Assembly (NCBI GenBank): GCA_963704655.1
Contig: OY969927.1
Span: 1,056,001 to 1,120,000 of the forward strand
DNA from: an uncultured Candidatus Babeliaceae bacterium
GTDB lineage: Bacteria; Babelota; Babeliae; Babelales; Babelaceae
Length of the DNA stretch: 64,000 nucleotides
Reading direction: 5' to 3'
Shown piece after piece: positions 9,890 to 19,281 of this stretch. A program made the position numbers and the translations under genes. The notes beneath the pieces are model-generated. The model did not search any database, was not told the DNA's origin, and saw only the letters and a list, made by a program, of their open reading frames with translations. Positions within the stretch are counted from its first letter, which is position 1, and every line of letters begins with the position of its first letter.

Positions 9890-10471
9890 TTATATTTCTT
9901 TTATGAGATGTATGCTTTCAGAGAGTGATTTTTTAATAATAGGGTTTCCCTGATACATTATGCGACCGCTGCCTGCGCCTTGAGCATCTATCGAATTGCT
10001 TAATAATGATGTTGCATCGATTTGAATTGATCCAGAAACAGAGATATTAAGATGGTCTGTAGCACCTGAAAGTGCCACATCAATACTGCCACTACCCATG
10101 AGGGTGAAAGTAGGTGTTTTAATGTTATCTATCTGGCCTTTAATTGCGCCACTGGCACCAATAGACTGTAATTCTGGGATTGCTAATGTAACAATAACTG
10201 GGTCATGAACTGGCTTATATTTATCTTTGATTTCTAATTTCGAGCCCTGAGCTTCTACACTGAGCTGCGCAAGAACTGTATCTGATGCTTTTATTTCAAG
10301 CTTTGACTCAGCAGTCTGGGTAATATTTAGAATAATGTTTCCTGAAACGTGTACATCGGTAACACCATGCACATCAACTGAATGGATATCGACTAAAGGT
10401 TGTTTTGCTGCATTAAAAAAGCAGCAGGATGAAAATGCCAATATGGGCAGTAATAAAAAAAATTGTTTCAT
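9890..10471 (-). CDS. DUF2807/GIN-domain (adhesin head-like) putative lipoprotein
   Basis: Signal ending FSSC; repeated SG.. beta-solenoid turns; GSGRIMYQGNP. Confidence 0.75.
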   Translation of the reverse strand: MKQFFLLLPILAFSSCCFFNAAKQPLVDIHSVDVHGVTDVHVSGNIILNITQTAESKLEIKASDTVLAQLSVEAQGSKLEIKDKYKPVHDPVIVTLAIPELQSIGASGAIKGQIDNIKTPTFTLMGSGSIDVALSGATDHLNISVSGSIQIDATSLLSNSIDAQGAGSGRIMYQGNPIIKKSLSESIHLIKEI

Positions 10472-10569
10472 TTAGAATTCCTTTTAATCATCTTAAGATG
10501 TATTTCTATTAGTATATAGGGTTTGGTCGAAAAAACAAAATAGCGCAAGTAAAGCACAAATAATTCTAC

Positions 10570-10598
10570 TTGAAATTCGTATAATTGTATGGTAGAGT
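10570..10598 (+). promoter_or_regulatory. Sigma70-type promoter for the leader peptide/symporter
   Basis: TTGAAA-17 bp-TAGAGT with an extended -10 TG. Confidence 0.55.
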
Positions 10599-10642
10599 AA
10601 TAAATGTTATATATTTTTTTAATCTATTGGGAAGGAACTCAT

Positions 10643-10759
10643 ATGACACGTTTTGTTTCATATACGCAGCCTGCGACAGCCGCTTGTCAGGTTATTGTAC
10701 TCTCTAATACTCTTTCTTCTGCTTCCCATCTCCACCATCCACATCATCATTGCCTTTAA
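10643..10759 (+). CDS. His-rich leader peptide (38 aa), putative histidine attenuator leader
   Basis: GAAGGA SD; MTRFVSYTQPATAACQVIVLSNTLSSASHLHHPHHHCL*; followed by hairpins and the symporter gene. Confidence 0.75.
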   Translation: MTRFVSYTQPATAACQVIVLSNTLSSASHLHHPHHHCL

Positions 10760-10845
10760 TGGCTTTATCGGCTTTTTAGCCACTTTGTATAAATAACTGT
10801 TTTTTGTAGGTAACAAGGGACCATTGTGTCGTTTGTTACGCTTTG
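10760..10845 (+). promoter_or_regulatory. Putative attenuator hairpins
   Basis: TGGCT..AGCCA stem immediately after the leader stop; GTAACAA.GAC..GTC.TTGTTAC stem at about 10810-10839. Confidence 0.45.
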
Positions 10846-10930
10846 TGAGAATTATTATGAAAAATAATATTCTGAATATTTTATCTATGCATATAACAAA
10901 AATAAGATATCAATTAACTAAGGATCAATT

Positions 10931-12283
10931 ATGAATACTTTTATATTTTTAACACTTTTTACATTATTAGGTGCATTATATTTCTTTTTAGGACTCCGCG
11001 CATCAAAAAATGTAAAAACGGCTCGTGACTATTTTGTTGCAAACAAGCAGCTTGGCGTATGGCAGATTACCTGCAATTTAATTGCCACACAATTAGGTGG
11101 CGGAATGCTCTTAGGGACTGCGGCTGCTGCATACGCCACCGGTTTATACGGCATGTTTTATAATGTCGGCATGGCGTTAGGTTTTCTTTTACTTGGGTGC
11201 GGCATAGCTGCAAGATTACAGCAATTTAATATAACCACGACCGCAGAACTTTTTGAGCTTCGCTATAAATCTTCAAACCTAAAAATGATCGCATCTTTGC
11301 TTTCTATAGCAACGCTTTTTGGGATCTTAATCGCGCAGGTTGTTGGCTTTAAAAGCTTGATGGCCACTATCGGTTTCAGCGCATGGTACATTGTGCTCCC
11401 ATTTTGGCTGTCTGTGGTTGTCTACACTATGGTCGGTGGCTTACGCGCAATTACTATTAATGATATGGTACAACTGGCGCTTATCTGTTGCACGTTTGTT
11501 GGAATATTTGTCTACTGTATTATGCAACCAGGCATGGGGATTGGTATATTGATTGAACAACAAAATATATTTACTGCGCAAAGTCTTGCCACCGTTTCTG
11601 TTGTTGGCACTATACTCATGCCGGCCCTTTTTTCATTAATTGAGCAAGATTTAGCACAACGGTTTTTTGCAAGTAAAACACAAGCAGTTGCGACACAATC
11701 AGCGTTCAATGCAGCTTTATTTACCGTGTTATTTTCAATAATTCCTGTCTATATGGGCATACAGACAAAACTTCTTGGAATAAGCTTTCCTGATGGTGCC
11801 AACCCATTATTAGTATTTTTACAAACTATAGTGCCAACAGCTATTTTTGCGCTTGCATTATGCGCAATTATTGCTGCCATTGTCTCAACGGCCGACGCTC
11901 TTATGAATGGCATAAGTGCTAATATAACGCAAGATTTTAAGCTTGCAGAAAAGCTGGGATACAATACTCTTACTGTCTCTAAGGTTACTACATTTGGTAT
12001 TGGCCTATGCGCACTTGTCGCATCATACTGTGTTAATCAGAGCGTTATAGATATCTTGATTCAAAGTTATGAACTTTCAGTAGTATGTTTATTGGTGCCA
12101 CTATTGTTTTGTTATTTCAAAAAAGATATATCATATAAAGCCGCATATGCTGCGATAATATTTGGGTTTATAGGCTTTATTATGGGTAGATTATACATAA
12201 CTCCATTTCCACGCGAGATTATTGCTTTAGCGCTGTCGTATATAGCGTATATCTGTGTAGAAAAGATTATAATGCGAAATTGA
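10931..12283 (+). CDS. Sodium:solute symporter (SSS family), candidate histidine/amino-acid transporter
   Basis: DYFVANK, ATQLGGG, YTMVGGLRAI.INDMVQ, QDLAQRFFA, AAIVSTAD. Confidence 0.9.
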   Translation: MNTFIFLTLFTLLGALYFFLGLRASKNVKTARDYFVANKQLGVWQITCNLIATQLGGGMLLGTAAAAYATGLYGMFYNVGMALGFLLLGCGIAARLQQFNITTTAELFELRYKSSNLKMIASLLSIATLFGILIAQVVGFKSLMATIGFSAWYIVLPFWLSVVVYTMVGGLRAITINDMVQLALICCTFVGIFVYCIMQPGMGIGILIEQQNIFTAQSLATVSVVGTILMPALFSLIEQDLAQRFFASKTQAVATQSAFNAALFTVLFSIIPVYMGIQTKLLGISFPDGANPLLVFLQTIVPTAIFALALCAIIAAIVSTADALMNGISANITQDFKLAEKLGYNTLTVSKVTTFGIGLCALVASYCVNQSVIDILIQSYELSVVCLLVPLLFCYFKKDISYKAAYAAIIFGFIGFIMGRLYITPFPREIIALALSYIAYICVEKIIMRN

Positions 12284-12327: not shown

Positions 12328-14733
12328 TTAAATACCGAATTTAGTTTCAGTGATATATTGTTTATCGTTTGTTCGAGAAACAGGTTGTGCGGCCACAGAT
12401 TTCTGACTTTTTCTTCTGCCTTTGTTGCGTCGTGGTTTGGTGTTGTCACGCTTGCGGTCTGCACCTTTTTCAAATTCACGAACAAAGTCGCCTTGTGCTT
12501 GAGACAGGAACACATTAGTAGTTTCTTGGGCATCTTCAAGTCTGCTTTTAAAGAACCAACGAGTTACCGGGTCGCGTGGACTGCCAATAACACTTTGTGT
12601 TTCAAATACTTCAAAGCCAGTAGAAATTTTGTCACGCGTATAAATTTCTACGCCGCCTCTAATTTTGGGTTCGATAATGGTTGGTGTAATAAGAATCAGA
12701 AGATTTGCTCGCTCTGTCGAACGTGAGCTGTATTGAAAGAACGGCCCTATAAGAGGAATGTCAGCTAAAATAGGGACTTTATAGGTGCTTTCCGTCTCAG
12801 TTAATGTTCCAAGACCACCAAGTGCTAATATTTGTCCGCTACTGATATTTGAGTTCGTGTTAACTGTTCGTGTATTACGCGTATAGTTAGTCTGTGTTGT
12901 GGTGGTAAATTCTTGCACATCGACTGCTATTTGCATATTAACACGGTCTAAAGATGCCACACGAGCAACAATACCAACACGTAGTCGAGCTTCAATATCT
13001 TCAACTTTTTGTGAAACAACCGCAGCCTGACCAGCAAATGCTTGACCTTGGTCACGTCTGATGGTACTGATAATTGTTTCTGCTTCTCTGTTGTTGCGTG
13101 CAACTAAAAATGGATGCGAAAGTACTTTTAAATCTGTATATGAATCGAGTACTTGTAATACGCCCCAAATTCCAGTACCATTTGGATCGTTAAATGACAT
13201 AATAAGCGAACCAGGGTTTGCAGCTGAAAGGCTTGAAGCAAGACTTGAAGCAGGGACTGATCCTACAGCTGGATTTATAAGACTTAAAAGATCCGCTGCC
13301 AATTTAGCAGGTTCAGGCACTAACGTTGTTGGAGCAGATGCGCCAGCAGTGTTTAAAATTGCCCCACCTGAATTTGCAAGTGCGGCTTGCGCTGTAACGC
13401 CGTTAGATTGAATAGTGGTTGGCACATTTGCGGTAAGGTTGCGGATCTGTGCGCCCAAGATTTTACTTTCATCAATAGTAACATCAATAACCATAACTTC
13501 GATAATAACAATAGGCTGGGGAATATCGAGCGATTTGACAAGATCTCTTATCTTTATCCAATCATCTTGACGTGCGGTTATAATAAGTCTATTGCCGCCT
13601 TTAAATACTGTTGAGCCTTGAAGTAATGATTTTTGATCGCCAGTTGTTTGAATAGCTTCTGCTTTTTCTTCGACTTTTTCTTCTGCGACAACAATAACGC
13701 CTTCAAATGTTTTACGAACACCACCCTGGAGATCTTTAGTTGCCTGAGCTGTTTCTGTTCCAGATTTTACTATTTTTTGTAAAATTGGTGCAAAAGTTGG
13801 AGCATCAAGATATTGAAGTTCATAAACATGTAATATGGATCTACCCGAATCAGCAGGTTGATCAAGTTCGGCAATAAGATCTTTTATGCGTTCAACACTT
13901 GAGGAAGAGCCAGATAAAATAATGGCATTTAAGCGATTGTCTGCAACTAAATGTGCTTGACTGGCACCAAAATAAAGACCGGCTTCTGATTTAACGTCAG
14001 CTTTAAGCGTGCCTTTTTCAGTACCAGTAAGAGCTAAAATTTGTGTTTTAATCAAATCAGCTACAATATTTGCATCGACATTATACAATCGCACCACTTC
14101 AAGAACATTTGGGTCCCCCGAGCGATCTAAAAGCATAATGATATTTAATGCTGTCGCCAGTTTATTTGCAGAGTCAGCGGCAATAATAGCATTTGTTTTT
14201 GTATCAAAAGTAACGGATTTGTTTGCTGATAAAACATCGGTTAAGATCTGGTTGATAGGATCTTTATCATCACTTGCGTTATATTTTTCTGGAACTTTTA
14301 AATTTGTTAAGTAAACGATTGCACGTATTTTATTTTCGGTTTGAGGAAAATCTTGCGGATTAAATCCGACATAAATAGGCAGTGTGTCGCGATTGCTATT
14401 AGGATCATTTTTAATGATCATATGCATGCCATTGTGCGGAATCATGGTATAGCCAGCAAGATTAAGCAACAGGGCGATATATTCCCATGCTTTTTCCAAT
14501 GTAACTTTTTTGGGTAATTGGATGTTTACTTTTTGTTTAATGGCATTTGCTCCTTGAGGAAGCAAAATATTCATACCGGCTCTTTCAGCAAGCTCAGTAA
14601 CGATTTCTGATAGTTCTTTATCGGTAAAATTAAAGTCGATAAGATTGCCTGAAGGAATATTAACCTTGCTTATAAGATGATTTGTGGTAGCAAGTATGAG
14701 TGTTATAAGTAATAATATTTTTTTCATGTTCAT
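12328..14733 (-). CDS. gspD: Type II secretion secretin (GspD-like), copy 2
   Basis: N0 DFNFTDKEL, N-domain repeats, LDIPQPIVIIEVMV, LALGGL, KVPILADIPLIGPFF, LLILITPTII. Confidence 0.92.
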   Translation of the reverse strand: MNMKKILLLITLILATTNHLISKVNIPSGNLIDFNFTDKELSEIVTELAERAGMNILLPQGANAIKQKVNIQLPKKVTLEKAWEYIALLLNLAGYTMIPHNGMHMIIKNDPNSNRDTLPIYVGFNPQDFPQTENKIRAIVYLTNLKVPEKYNASDDKDPINQILTDVLSANKSVTFDTKTNAIIAADSANKLATALNIIMLLDRSGDPNVLEVVRLYNVDANIVADLIKTQILALTGTEKGTLKADVKSEAGLYFGASQAHLVADNRLNAIILSGSSSSVERIKDLIAELDQPADSGRSILHVYELQYLDAPTFAPILQKIVKSGTETAQATKDLQGGVRKTFEGVIVVAEEKVEEKAEAIQTTGDQKSLLQGSTVFKGGNRLIITARQDDWIKIRDLVKSLDIPQPIVIIEVMVIDVTIDESKILGAQIRNLTANVPTTIQSNGVTAQAALANSGGAILNTAGASAPTTLVPEPAKLAADLLSLINPAVGSVPASSLASSLSAANPGSLIMSFNDPNGTGIWGVLQVLDSYTDLKVLSHPFLVARNNREAETIISTIRRDQGQAFAGQAAVVSQKVEDIEARLRVGIVARVASLDRVNMQIAVDVQEFTTTTQTNYTRNTRTVNTNSNISSGQILALGGLGTLTETESTYKVPILADIPLIGPFFQYSSRSTERANLLILITPTIIEPKIRGGVEIYTRDKISTGFEVFETQSVIGSPRDPVTRWFFKSRLEDAQETTNVFLSQAQGDFVREFEKGADRKRDNTKPRRNKGRRKSQKSVAAQPVSRTNDKQYITETKFGI

Positions 14734-14740
14734 ACTTCAA

Positions 14741-15298
14741 TTAGGCTGAGGTTTGTTGTGGTTCTAACGTAGCTATAATTAATGTTACATCAAGAAGGCC
14801 ATCTTTAATATTTTTTATAATTTTGAGCTCTTTGGTATACACGCGTTGATTCTGTTCTATTTTAAAAAGAAGCTCGGTAAGGAGTTTCATATTGAGTTTA
14901 GAAAATGTGACGGCCAATTTATGTTCTGTAAATCCATTGCCGATGTCGCTTTCAGAGCGTTCTGACTCTTTGGTAAGATTACTTTGTAAATTTTGTGATT
15001 TAATAAGATCAGTAAAATATTGCCCTATATAAAAATTAGGCTCTTCGGCAAGTATAGCCTTTACTGCTTCTTGCTGTGTAAGAACTTCTTTGTTTTTTAC
15101 CAATATTTCTTGGGTAACAGCTCTTTGTTTATTAACTTTTTTTAATTCGGTAGTGAGTTTTGATACTGTTCTAAAATGGGTATAGACAATAACTCCTGAA
15201 ATTAGAATAAGTGCGCCAAGAAAAACTCCGTAATAGATATATAGATCGCGTTTACTTTTAGTAGAAAAAAAATTACGTATAGAATCGGTGAAACTCAT
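14741..15298 (-). CDS. gspM: GspM/PilO-like T2SS inner-membrane platform protein
   Basis: Single TM, coiled coil, LTELLFKIE ferredoxin-like C-domain; directly follows gspL-like gene. Confidence 0.65.
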   Translation of the reverse strand: MSFTDSIRNFFSTKSKRDLYIYYGVFLGALILISGVIVYTHFRTVSKLTTELKKVNKQRAVTQEILVKNKEVLTQQEAVKAILAEEPNFYIGQYFTDLIKSQNLQSNLTKESERSESDIGNGFTEHKLAVTFSKLNMKLLTELLFKIEQNQRVYTKELKIIKNIKDGLLDVTLIIATLEPQQTSA

Positions 15299-16837
15299 TT
15301 AATCCTCCTTATAATTTTTATCAAGGGTAATTTTAATGGAGAATTTTGGTTCTTGTGGATGTGTTACTTCCTTGAACATACCATTTGGTCTACTGAGTTC
15401 TTGGTCAAGAAGTTGCAGCGCCGCATAATCTTTAACTTCGCCTTCAAGCACCATAGTGCCATTGGTGTCGTTAATTGATAACATAGTTAGCGTTAGTCCA
15501 AGTGCTTTTGCATCTAATCGTCTAAAAAGCTCCTGCAAATAATTTAAAAATGAATATCGGTTTTGGCTAGAAAGAGCAAACCAGATCTCTTCCTGTTTTT
15601 TGACCGATGCTTTTGCCGCATCAATAACCCGTTCAAGATTTTTTCCTGTAACTTGTTGCTTAGGTAAATTAAGTTCACGCGCAAGCTTCTGTTTTGCATC
15701 TTCTTGTGAAGCATAAATCTCTTTTTTTATTTTTCGTTGAGTTAATTGTGTATGAATTATAAGTGATCCAATAACAATTATAAAAAGTGTTAGTGCTGTC
15801 ACAAGTTGTCTAAACAATAATGCATTGTTATGGGGTGCAAATTCATCCTGAAGAAAATTAATTGAACGGGTATAGGATAAATCAAGAGCCGATCCAACAC
15901 TAGCTATAAAGGGTGTTGTTAGAAGAACGCCATTTACTGCTTTTATAGTATTATTATGTACCACTTTATAGAGTAAAAATTCTTCTGTTTTTAGACCGGT
16001 TGCTTCCTGGATCTCATTAATAAGTGTTTTATTTTCTGTTGAAGATAGTGCAACTAAAACACGTTGAATCTTTTTTTCTTCGGGTAACGAGCTATTGAAA
16101 GTATCAAGTGTGAATTGTATATCTTGCATAAAACGTGCATCATGATAGCCACGTGAAATGATACGAATGTTGCGTAGCTGACCATCTACAATTGCTATAA
16201 ATTGGCGCGAGTCATTTGTTATTTCAATGCATAATGTCGATGTTGTATCATCGTTATATTCTGGAATTTCTTTAAAGATCGAATAAAATTCAAAAAGATG
16301 AACTGAAAATTTTGTTGGCTTAAGCCCAGCGTTATGAAAGAGCGCAACAGTTTGTGTAACCGTATAACGTTTAACTGCAGCAACTTGTACTGTTGTTTTA
16401 TTATTATTCCTATCTTGGTTTATAACTAAAGCATCGATAAATGCTTCATTAAGTGAAAAAGGCAGCATAGGCTCTATTTCAAAAGGAATTACCATTTTAA
16501 TGGTATCGATATCGGTAAAAGGAATAGTTATCTCTTTAAAGATGGCCAGATTGTTTGATAGCGATATAATAAGTCCATCATAATTACCGATACTTATCGC
16601 AATTTTCTTTAATGCCTCTACTATACGCTCTTCTAGGGGTATAAGTTCATCTTGTGCTATCTCTTGCTGAAAGCAACCAGTGATGGTTTTTTTATATCCT
16701 TGTGCCTGGACAACCGTTGCAAGAATAAGATTATTTTGTATCTCAAGGCCAACTAATTTTTGAGCTGTGACATAGTAACCATTAAGAGCGTCGGGCAAAA
16801 AAAGCGAACGAACTTGATTGAAGTAAGATGTTATCAT
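15299..16837 (-). CDS. gspL: GspL (PilM/PilN-like) T2SS protein
   Basis: Actin-like N-domain (VGLEI, IPFEIEPMLPFS, VAAV), SINFL, TM, periplasmic domain. Confidence 0.75.
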   Translation of the reverse strand: MITSYFNQVRSLFLPDALNGYYVTAQKLVGLEIQNNLILATVVQAQGYKKTITGCFQQEIAQDELIPLEERIVEALKKIAISIGNYDGLIISLSNNLAIFKEITIPFTDIDTIKMVIPFEIEPMLPFSLNEAFIDALVINQDRNNNKTTVQVAAVKRYTVTQTVALFHNAGLKPTKFSVHLFEFYSIFKEIPEYNDDTTSTLCIEITNDSRQFIAIVDGQLRNIRIISRGYHDARFMQDIQFTLDTFNSSLPEEKKIQRVLVALSSTENKTLINEIQEATGLKTEEFLLYKVVHNNTIKAVNGVLLTTPFIASVGSALDLSYTRSINFLQDEFAPHNNALLFRQLVTALTLFIIVIGSLIIHTQLTQRKIKKEIYASQEDAKQKLARELNLPKQQVTGKNLERVIDAAKASVKKQEEIWFALSSQNRYSFLNYLQELFRRLDAKALGLTLTMLSINDTNGTMVLEGEVKDYAALQLLDQELSRPNGMFKEVTHPQEPKFSIKITLDKNYKED

Positions 16838-19281
16838 GTTCCCTCCGGCTTGTTTTTTGGAGTATCATCTTTAGAGCCAAAACGGGCTCTTACCATTTGC
16901 TCAACTTGAGCAGTTGGAACCTGTTCAGGTAGCCGTTCTTTTCTTGGTTCAGGTTTAGGATTTTCATGCTCTTGATCTTGCATATGATTCATCAAAGAGC
17001 TCTTTGAACTCTTCGTAAGACGTTTTGGTTTTTCTAATCGTGCATATTGGCTCTCGTCGATATATTTATCTTTGAGTCCAACAAAATCGTCAATAACAGC
17101 TTCACCGTGTTGAACATTGTCTTTAAAGAACCAACGTAATAATGGGTCACGCTGTTTTGTGTCGCCATAAAAGACAGCTTTTGTATCAAGAATCTTATCT
17201 TCGGTGAAGTTGTCAGCGACCTCATCATTTTCAGTAGGAATAATTTCTGGAACTATAAGTACCAAAATACTTGATCGTTCTGATGTTTTTACGATATTTT
17301 TAAATAAATTTCCTAGAATCGGGATATCGCCTAAAATAGGAACTTTAGTAATGGTATCAGTAACGGTATCTTGAATTAACCCGCCTAAAGCAAGTACTTC
17401 GTTGTTTGACATTATAACACTGGTGTTAACGGTCTTTTTGGTTCTATTACCGGCAGGTATATAATTTTGATCCGTATCTGGGCTTGTAAATTGCTCATAG
17501 TTTACTACAACATCTAATGTGATAAGGCCATCAACGCTTATTTGAGGTGTAACACTCACCGTTAAATTTGCGGCCAAATCTTTATAGGCGTTCGTACTTA
17601 CTGCGCTACCGTTTTGGATCACTGCATCAACAACCCGACGAATGGAACCGACAGATATCTGAGCAGGGTACTTATTAGTGGTTACCAAAAACGGGTTAGC
17701 AACCACAGATGTTTTTGTATATTGTTCAAGAATTTTAAAGAGTCCCCATACACCGTCAATATCGGCTCCAAGGGTTAATAATGTAGAGCCAACATTTCCA
17801 GAAAGTGATGCAAGTGAGATAAGATCGCCAAGTAATCGTGTAGCACCGGTGCCGCTAGGGTTTTCAACAACAGATGAACCGGTTCCTGCAAGGCCAGAAG
17901 TTTGAAAATTAACGTTATTACCTAAAAAGCCATTTACGCCAGGAACTTTATTTCGCAACTGTGTTCCTATTTCTTTGTTTTCCGTTAAGTCGATATTAAG
18001 TAAAAGTACCTTGATTGCAACTTGCGGCTGCTCGACATCTATTCTTTTTATAAGGTTAAAGATCTTCGTATAGTCATCATAATCGGCATAAATAATAAGA
18101 CGGTTGCCAGTTTTTTCTGCTTCGACATATACCGGCTTTAAATACTTGTCGCCATCGCGCACACCACCGTTTTTAGCAGCATCAGTATCCCTTTGAAACT
18201 GTGTTGCAGCGTTTAAAATCTTAGCGAGAGACTCAGCGTTAGTATGTTTAAGTGCATAGGTAAAAATCGGCGTATAGCTTGCATCGGCACGTTTATCTAA
18301 TGTTTTTTCTATAAAGTCATATACACGCTGAACAGAATCTTTTGTTCCAACCATCACAATAGCGTTCAAGTGGGGAATTGGTGTCAAACGAATATTTTCA
18401 GAAAAATAGCTGGTGCTTGGTTTTTTTCGTTGGCCCAGAAGACGTGCCGTTAAAGATGGTTCATCAGTTTTGATTAATTCTTTATACAAATTTACTGCTC
18501 GGGTAGCGTCTATGCGTTCAAGTTTTAAAATCTTTAAAATCTCTGTTGGATTTGCTTGATCAAGTTCATTAATAATAGCCAACATATTTTTAATATTAGA
18601 TGACTTGTCGGTAAGGATAATTGCGCGCATGTCAGGTATTATAATTGCCCGCGGTGATGCGGCGCTTTTTACTTCATTGATAAGGTTGATAATAGTATCT
18701 AACGATGTATTTTTTATGAACGTAATATAACGAATAACTGTATCATCAGAAGGTAGTTCTTCGAGTTTAGTGTCTATGTAAAGTGGCAGCGGATTTTTGC
18801 CAGGGCTTAATGGAGATTTTGGATCTGTAGGTGAAATTCTAAATACACGGGGTGATGGACCAGGGATTACGGTTAGGCCAGAAAGATCTAAAAATTGGGT
18901 GAATATCGCCCATGCGTCTTTTTTAGAGAATGGTTTATTGGTACTAAATGAAACAGTAATTCCTGAAATAGACTTGCTGCCTGCTGGTGCAGGGTTTAAA
19001 GAATCATCTAAAAGAAAAGTAATATTAAAGTGCTCTGCAAAATAATCTATTACCGCTTTTAGTGTGGTGCTTTCAAATTTAAACTCTATCGTTTCATTAG
19101 GGTCGCCATATTCCCACGGGTTGGTAAATTCGGTAAGATAGTTTTCTTTCAAGTAGGTTGGCTTTTTACTTTCCTGCAACTCTTCTTCTTTTGTTTTTAT
19201 ATGATCAATTAAAGGAGTAGCAGTGATGGCATTCCATATAGTTATTGTTACAAGCAAAAGTAAAAATAATTTTATTTTCAT
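16834..19281 (-). CDS. gspD: Type II secretion secretin (GspD-like), copy 1
   Basis: IDVEQPQVAIKV, VTPQIS, LALGGLI, KVPILGDIPILGNLFK. Confidence 0.92.
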   Translation of the reverse strand: MKIKLFLLLLVTITIWNAITATPLIDHIKTKEEELQESKKPTYLKENYLTEFTNPWEYGDPNETIEFKFESTTLKAVIDYFAEHFNITFLLDDSLNPAPAGSKSISGITVSFSTNKPFSKKDAWAIFTQFLDLSGLTVIPGPSPRVFRISPTDPKSPLSPGKNPLPLYIDTKLEELPSDDTVIRYITFIKNTSLDTIINLINEVKSAASPRAIIIPDMRAIILTDKSSNIKNMLAIINELDQANPTEILKILKLERIDATRAVNLYKELIKTDEPSLTARLLGQRKKPSTSYFSENIRLTPIPHLNAIVMVGTKDSVQRVYDFIEKTLDKRADASYTPIFTYALKHTNAESLAKILNAATQFQRDTDAAKNGGVRDGDKYLKPVYVEAEKTGNRLIIYADYDDYTKIFNLIKRIDVEQPQVAIKVLLLNIDLTENKEIGTQLRNKVPGVNGFLGNNVNFQTSGLAGTGSSVVENPSGTGATRLLGDLISLASLSGNVGSTLLTLGADIDGVWGLFKILEQYTKTSVVANPFLVTTNKYPAQISVGSIRRVVDAVIQNGSAVSTNAYKDLAANLTVSVTPQISVDGLITLDVVVNYEQFTSPDTDQNYIPAGNRTKKTVNTSVIMSNNEVLALGGLIQDTVTDTITKVPILGDIPILGNLFKNIVKTSERSSILVLIVPEIIPTENDEVADNFTEDKILDTKAVFYGDTKQRDPLLRWFFKDNVQHGEAVIDDFVGLKDKYIDESQYARLEKPKRLTKSSKSSLMNHMQDQEHENPKPEPRKERLPEQVPTAQVEQMVRARFGSKDDTPKNKPEGT

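Follow-up and report, generated by a model that had tools for sequence, protein, structure and literature searches.

A histidine-codon leader before a histidine-free sodium symporter gene in Babelota: a candidate attenuator lacking a terminator

A small open reading frame (ORF) ending in a run of histidine codons and followed by a gene of the solute:sodium symporter (SSS) family raises the question of whether a host-dependent bacterium senses a shortage of histidine and which solute the symporter then carries. The pair lies at positions 10570–12283 of the window, a stretch of 64,000 nt from an uncultured Candidatus Babeliaceae bacterium (assembly GCA_963704655.1, contig OY969927.1, positions 1,056,001 to 1,120,000), whose first letter is position 1 here. 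The initial annotation had proposed a histidine-sensing leader in control of a histidine-uptake symporter. Judged from sequence, the pair probably consists of a leader that responds to histidine starvation and an importer of histidine, whatever the regulatory route. That the leader senses histidine appears very likely, and histidine as the substrate of the symporter is supported with good, somewhat lower confidence. A more specific proposal is advanced tentatively. It describes an attenuator without a terminator, in which the starved cognate codons would themselves be the loading site of Rho, so that the RNA would be both sensor and target and neither a conserved structure nor an arrest peptide would be involved. 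The attenuator would control a new stand-alone, histidine-specific SSS subfamily in which loss of histidine from the protein went along with retention of the leader.

The Babelota are host-dependent and have no complete amino-acid pathways; the main texts describing them are silent on histidine (PMC4776705, PMC6561590). The auxotrophy presumed initially is supported, as HisD was not found in any of 261 Babelota genomes, the 189 near-complete ones included (positive control 14 of 14), and HisG was not found in this genome.

The leader and its recurrence in the phylum

The predicted leader ORF (10643–10759, forward strand) runs for 38 codons from the ATG at 10643 to the TAA at 10759. Histidine accounts for six of the eight codons at 10727–10750, three to ten codons before the stop (at 10727, 10733, 10736, 10742, 10745 and 10748), and for none elsewhere in the ORF, just as first described; this cluster is the proposed sensor. 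The Shine–Dalgarno (SD) word AAGGA claimed for the leader is present at 10632–10636, 6 nt 5' of the ATG. An alternative in-frame ATG at 10604 would give a 51-codon leader with one extra histidine, an SD being found only for the start at 10643. The description of the leader as unannotated is in keeping with the protein records, in that an exact look-up in a collection of 15 billion proteins returned the transporter and not the leader peptide.

The leader is presumably translated. Shuffling the preceding 400 nt 2000 times never produced five or more histidines, as against the six observed, and of the 90 small intergenic ORFs in the genome that have an SD this one ranks first for a cluster of any amino acid. 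No convincing leader for another amino acid was seen among these 90, and histidine is therefore singled out.

Matches to the transporter occur in 131 of the 261 phylum genomes. From the 150 places listed, with 24 further weak matches left out, nine were dropped as 3' fragments or as the second half of a split gene; the 141 loci used, own locus included, comprise 117 of a main clade and 24 of a distant one. At 18 of the 116 other main-clade loci a short ORF upstream has four or more histidines in its last 12 codons; the reverse strand gave 0 of 116 and the distant SSS genes 0 of 24. Thirty shuffles gave a mean of 0.17 such ORFs and a maximum of 3. At the main-clade loci no other residue showed a strand contrast as strong as that of histidine, and no leader for another amino acid was enriched before SSS paralogues or in the distant clade.

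A wider leader rule, fixed after inspection of this first set of loci, picks 38 of the 117 main-clade loci, 32 of them with an SD-like word, and 4 of the 24 distant loci, one with an SD; two of the 38 picks resemble out-of-frame pieces of the upstream gene. The 32 SD-bearing leaders are spread over 8 families and 21 genera, and at their positions −3 to −10 histidine occurs more often than any other residue. A second set comprised 80 metagenome loci, 68 of which were usable after removal of 12 for short flank, truncation, lack of a start or identity with the first set. Under the unchanged rule, 22 of the 68 have a leader with an SD, and 15 of the 68 combine an SD with at least four histidines in the last 16 codons, as compared with 0 of 68 for the reverse strand. 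The search for such leaders before orthologous SSS genes, suggested initially as a check, was thus positive in both sets. Taken across the sets, with the omission of L207, a likely false pick, 53 leaders are available. They have 18–56 codons with 2–10 histidines near the stop and are separated from the gene by spacers of 50–319 nt (median 88 nt). No peptide residue other than histidine is conserved across them.

A predicted sigma-70-like promoter precedes the leader (−35 element at 10570–10575, −10 element at 10593–10598, with an extended TG), matching the consensus at 9 of 12 positions. The match behind the promoter named initially is real; taken alone it is not above chance, with 6 such sites found against 9.5 expected. 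It does recur, a 9/12 match being found within 80 nt 5' of the leader in 24 of 53 relatives, as compared with 3 of 53 for the region 5' of the SSS start and 0 of 53 for coding sequence (CDS). The position of the promoter before the leader rather than before the SSS start makes it most likely that leader and gene share one transcript, which would start from the predicted site at 10570–10598.

Leaders with one or two histidines at L015, L028, L054, L030 and L055 keep their position and mostly their SD, and the transporters behind them are histidine-free or histidine-poor; one histidine codon may suffice, or these leaders may be decaying. The shortest leaders (L015, L151, L205 and L217) start much like the symporter N-terminus, which may stem from duplication of the 5' end of the gene or merely from shared U-rich composition. 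SSS genes split into two frames occur at L016, where the histidine leader is intact, and at L113 and L117, and could be assembly errors. At L005 the protein is histidine-free and leaderless while its closest relative, L006, bears a leader; about 250–600 nt upstream of this SSS gene lies, on the opposite strand, what looks by eye like an insertion-sequence transposase, which suggests that the leader of L005 was lost recently. The same-genus orthologue L003 (P0003) is a leaderless protein of 785 residues with the SSS fused to a PF01435 peptidase domain. A long ORF stands within 100 nt upstream of 35 of the 75 full-length leaderless genes, and many leaderless orthologues directly follow a putative HAD-family hydrolase or RuvB gene, as judged by eye from the C-termini (L020, L026, L058, L062, L068, L077–L087; L070, L085, L088, L091, L098).

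A symporter without histidine

The gene behind the leader (10931–12283, forward strand) encodes a protein of 450 residues and is indeed an SSS transporter, as stated initially. PF00474 (SSF) lies above its cut-off (E 6e-27), and the predicted structure (pLDDT 92) is a plain SSS fold, which places the protein in the SSS/SLC5 family. It is the only SSF gene of the genome (1.30 Mb, 96% complete). PDB sequence and fold searches and the Atlas returned generic SSS matches only, and neither they nor NCBIfam named a substrate. Every NCBIfam equivalog cut-off was missed, those of PutP (60 of 515 bits), PanF (62 of 328) and ActP included, and the closest solved folds are the choline transporter CHT1 and SiaT (TM 0.81–0.86; CHT1 0.86 at 22% identity).

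The polar columns Q54, Y77, Q136, W159, E238, Q239, D240, S379 and Y380 are more than 90% conserved in the leader-bearing proteins. They are occupied otherwise in the phylum's distant clade, which is presumably PutP-like by its motif. S319 and T320 are conserved where we take the Na2 site to lie. The main clade is present in about 40% of Babelota genomes. In the best 120 of 510 homologues four names bear a taxon, one of them simply 'bacterium' and the others TM6/Dependentiae, including a Vermiphilus pyriformis protein, and a contig search with the symporter protein as the single query returned four loci.

Proteins that are needed during starvation tend to use little of the cognate amino acid; the literature search on such cognate amino-acid bias found no supporting paper. 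The symporter has no histidine in its 450 residues, against an average of 1.5% in the 39 membrane proteins of the genome (P ~0.001), and is one of only two histidine-free proteins among the 464 of at least 300 residues. The other (G000:C1:890941–892164, reverse strand) appears by eye to be a PilC/GspF-type membrane protein. Leader-bearing orthologues contain 0.10% histidine, 21 of 30 having none, as compared with 0.94% in leaderless orthologues (10 of 81 with none) and 1.49% in the distant clade, where none of the 24 proteins is histidine-free and one histidine forms a conserved column. Most of the histidine-free genes counted as leaderless have weak leaders, with 1–3 histidines or without an SD word. 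Related proteins are not independent, and tree-based tests were therefore used. In phylogenetic generalised least squares over 111 proteins, histidine was the only residue of the 20 to pass the Bonferroni correction (t −3.5, p 7e-4). The depletion of histidine in the transporter points in the same direction as histidine sensing by the leader and is an independent signature. A second SSS paralogue of about 35% identity (L090, L094, L095, L107, L109 and L114) lies near the main-clade gene in several genomes. These paralogues are leaderless, have 2–10 histidines and possibly carry a different cargo.

A precedent for histidine transport by this fold exists in the SSS domain of the Pseudomonas sensor kinase CbrA, which takes up histidine specifically and is the sole SSS case of histidine transport named in the relevant part of PMC7918813. 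The histidine transporters given in the corresponding part of PMC9413887 are HisXYZ (ABC type) and YuiF; the words 'SSS' and 'symporter' do not occur in that part, and the attenuators described there stand before biosynthetic operons. The YuiF-type domain PF13726 was not found in the genome.

The regulatory route and its alternatives

The proposed route begins with a single transcript that would start 5' of the leader and continue into the symporter gene, the leader acting as a gauge of His-tRNA. If histidine is plentiful, the ribosome would finish the leader and be released, which would expose about 80 nt of unstructured C/U-rich RNA made up of the histidine codons and their neighbours. Rho would load on this tract and transcription would end within the spacer or soon after entering the symporter gene, the small hairpins perhaps aiding termination by pausing. 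If the host provides too little histidine, the ribosome would dwell on the histidine codons and cover the tract, and the symporter would be made. Having shed its own histidine codons, it would be translatable under histidine starvation; its cargo would most likely be L-histidine.

The hairpins reported initially do exist. One of 3 bp spans the leader stop codon (10752–10763), one of 4 bp with a weak U tail follows at 10770–10781, and a distal one of −9.4 kcal/mol at 10810–10839 is followed by the weak U tract already remarked upon, which makes it a possible pause site or weak terminator. As a whole, the leader region folds no better than its shuffles (z −0.47). The doubt expressed about a classical terminator was justified. 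The terminator caller placed no intrinsic terminator between leader and gene, an Rfam scan of 10400–11000 gave only a chance match (E 4.9), and equilibrium folding with ribosome footprints, which answered the call for alternative structures, did not find a terminator/antiterminator switch. Both U-tailed hairpins are formed at P 1.0 with a ribosome on the first, third or last histidine codon. Since they persist in the stalled models, no antiterminator appears, and since the hairpin at 10770–10781 is found in the free and the histidine-stalled states alike, it is not a switch. The T-box RF00230 was absent from the genome and from the leader region.

The candidate Rho loading (rut) site is a pyrimidine- and C-rich, G-poor tract at 10681–10758 that overlaps the histidine codons. 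With 26 C, 7 G and 57 pyrimidines among its 78 nt, this window, picked after the data had been seen, is matched by 8 of 11544 CDS windows in C excess, by 1 of 11544 in pyrimidines and by 5 of 754 upstream regions. The leaders of the first set have a C/G ratio of 2.18 (1.86 without the histidine codons) against 0.96 in the SSS CDS, and the pyrimidine bias at fourfold sites was replicated (odds ratio 1.75 in the first set, 1.40 in the second). Rho itself scores above the cut-off in 245 of the 261 phylum genomes, this one included. The CDS of the genome have a purine content of 51.4%, and 16 of 88 terminators begin at most 12 nt after a stop codon, stop-to-stem distance being read against the usual coupling threshold; both values are compatible with coupled transcription and translation and give no sign of runaway transcription. 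For comparison, the purine content of CDS in B. subtilis is 54%, excess C and richness in T being features of Rho targets, according to the part of PMC13323073 that deals with them. An extreme pyrimidine- and C-rich leader RNA without a hairpin switch leads to shielding of a rut site by the stalled ribosome as the preferred route. For this locus the chances of a Rho-dependent route are judged to be even, and the route may differ among lineages.

Several observations weigh against this proposal. The C-over-G bias at fourfold sites was not replicated (odds ratio 1.9 in the first set, 0.92 in the second), the C content of the distal spacer is no higher than in leaderless loci, and across the relatives some of the data favour sequestration of the ribosome-binding site (RBS) or a weak hairpin. 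By the wider rule the leader is absent from 79 of the 117 main-clade loci, and both same-genus orthologues are without it. As to the transporter, the independent-pairs test over 11 pairs was directional, at 4.6 vs 0.5, but fell short of significance (median p 0.125), and the gap was weaker in the second set, with 1.05 histidines per protein behind a leader and 2.09 without one (p 0.08), both groups lying far below the 6–7 expected. CHT1 as the closest fold gives no pointer to histidine. The genome also has one SBP_bac_3 protein and two APC permeases as further amino-acid importers, so the symporter is not the sole possible route for histidine.

The initial annotation had allowed for a Rho-dependent or a translational mechanism, of which the first fits this locus better and the second was not found here. 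A translational output is nevertheless the strongest of the alternatives, though unlikely. The C/U-rich histidine region would pair with the SD and start of the symporter gene, and a stalled ribosome would free them. At 51 loci the opening of the RBS costs 7.64 kcal/mol with the real leader against 6.57 with codon-shuffled ones (p 0.006), and blocking the histidine region lowers this cost by more than 1 kcal/mol at 23 of 51, blocking the leader start at 4 of 51; short spacers, with their median of 88 nt, suit such pairing. The cross-locus effect is confounded, however, because the histidine region lies nearer to the RBS than the control region does, and no excess of RBS pairing is seen at 21 of the 51 loci. 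At the present locus the spacer is 171 nt long and the symporter SD (10920–10924) is predicted to be open already, with an opening energy of 2.7 kcal/mol in the free state, 2.7 after shuffling and 3.4 with the ribosome stalled.

Slightly less probable, and likewise unlikely, is a histidine-sensing leader in which a weak intrinsic terminator or a pause hairpin spans the stop codon and is covered by the stalled ribosome, without an antiterminator. Of the 53 leaders, 18 have at their stop a hairpin of −3 kcal/mol or stronger with a U tract. The same criterion selects 3 of 53 upstream windows, 2 of 51 stops of SSS genes and, among ordinary gene ends, 41 of 755. Folding z-scores fall below −1.5 in 17 of 32 leaders, and the 5' arm of the stop hairpin is built from different codons in different lineages. 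Against this, hairpin and U tract are present in only a third of the leaders, −8 kcal/mol is reached by 3 of 53, a control window in CDS already gives 12 of 53, and the contrast shrinks to 16 vs 12 of 53 without the U condition. At this locus the U-tailed hairpins are kept in full in every histidine-stalled model, as described above.

It is also conceivable, at a low probability, that histidine starvation induces the gene while the cargo is a histidine source or a related solute, such as a histidine dipeptide, another basic amino acid or several amino acids. Regulation shows need and not cargo, the PDB, NCBIfam and Atlas matches left the substrate unnamed, and no oligopeptide-binding protein (PF00496) was found in the genome. 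Against this, a precursor of the histidinol type would be useless because HisD is missing, and characterised SSS members are generally known to carry small single solutes. The only SSS domain with known histidine transport is highly specific in the account given in PMC7918813.

Histidine clusters are able to bind metals, and the leader could in principle be a small protein that binds metal or an arrest peptide that senses metal or pH, with a symporter cargo other than histidine. Cysteine is among the last three residues of 11 of the 53 leaders, and CruR offers a precedent for metal sensing by an upstream ORF (uORF) as outlined in PMC12360218. This explanation is nonetheless very improbable, given that a RAPP-like motif occurs in 0 of 53 leaders and CxxC in 1 of 53, that the 2–10 histidines have no fixed spacing, and that metal sensing would not predict the specific loss of histidine from the transporter. 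A functionless chance ORF or slippage of a CAT repeat can hardly be credited, for although 87% of the leader histidine codons are CAT (131 of 151, against 74% genome-wide) and most orthologues have no leader, the repeat in other frames is not enriched relative to the reverse strand (Ile 16 vs 12, Ser 9 vs 13 of 116), promoter, SD and position recur, and the enrichment was replicated in the second set.

As for the surroundings of the pair, a DUF2807 gene diverges upstream of the leader, and a type II secretion-like cluster occupies 12328–19281 on the reverse strand, with a GspD-type secretin at 12328–14733 and what looks like a second secretin at 16834–19281 (reverse strand).

Known systems and meaning for the Babelota

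The leader resembles enterobacterial hisL (Rfam His_leader) as a short SD-bearing ORF with clustered histidine codons before its stop, situated at the 5' end of the transcript, and a scarcity of His-tRNA is predicted to switch both on. The same likeness extends to the candidate histidine attenuators of the B. cereus group and the Peptostreptococcaceae in the part of PMC9413887 devoted to them. Unlike the hisL type, the present leader precedes a transporter in an auxotroph and not a biosynthetic operon; it has no terminator/antiterminator pair and no Rfam match, and its sequence is not conserved. Thus, the leader would work like a histidine attenuator but does not belong to the hisL type with respect to terminator, antiterminator and Rfam. 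A histidine leader may also stand before the YuiF-like gene HI0325 in Vibrio and Haemophilus, which the literature search did not confirm.

According to the sections of PMC12360218 on the subject, tnaC, speFL and cruR are uORFs on which a ribosome, once stalled, keeps a rut site covered, and hisL attenuation itself may mix intrinsic and Rho-dependent termination. Like these three and mgtL, the present leader is a uORF with an internal or adjacent pyrimidine-rich tract; shielding by a stalled ribosome is proposed, and a transporter is among the targets. The peptides of tnaC, speFL and cruR are ligand-controlled stalling peptides, and mgtL acts through refolding of the leader (same sections of PMC12360218). 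Here, in contrast to the first three, the leaders share no arrest motif, and it would be the starvation of cognate codons that stalls the ribosome. In Chlamydia, codon-based sensing of tryptophan takes a different, Rho-independent route, as far as PMC7755916 covers it.

The symporter shares its predicted histidine cargo with HisXYZ and YuiF and its SSS fold with CbrA, from which, going by the description of CbrA, it is set apart as a stand-alone protein of 450 residues without kinase domains. The fold is also common to PutP, PanF, CHT1 and SiaT, to which the symporter is only 16–22% identical. The mostly open-access main texts searched held no report of this leader or of attenuation in Babelota, and the terms 'attenuation' and 'leader peptide' are absent from the Babelota papers checked.

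The finding proposes a specific, testable substrate for an orphan transporter clade and offers a candidate stand-alone histidine importer of the SSS family, where the named SSS case of histidine transport is a domain of the kinase CbrA. A leader of cognate codons combined with depletion of the cognate residue in the protein gives a reusable route to the substrates of orphan transporters. As the textbook hairpin switch is lacking, the architecture is one that searches based on terminators or Rfam would miss. If the interpretation is true, nutrient sensing would be retained in highly reduced intracellular parasites that have been described as being without biosynthetic pathways. If, moreover, the tentative proposal of a terminator-less, Rho-dependent attenuator is true, this would be, as far as the literature found allows it to be said, the first description of a regulatory circuit in Babelota, and would mean that protist hosts limit histidine for their Babelota parasites.

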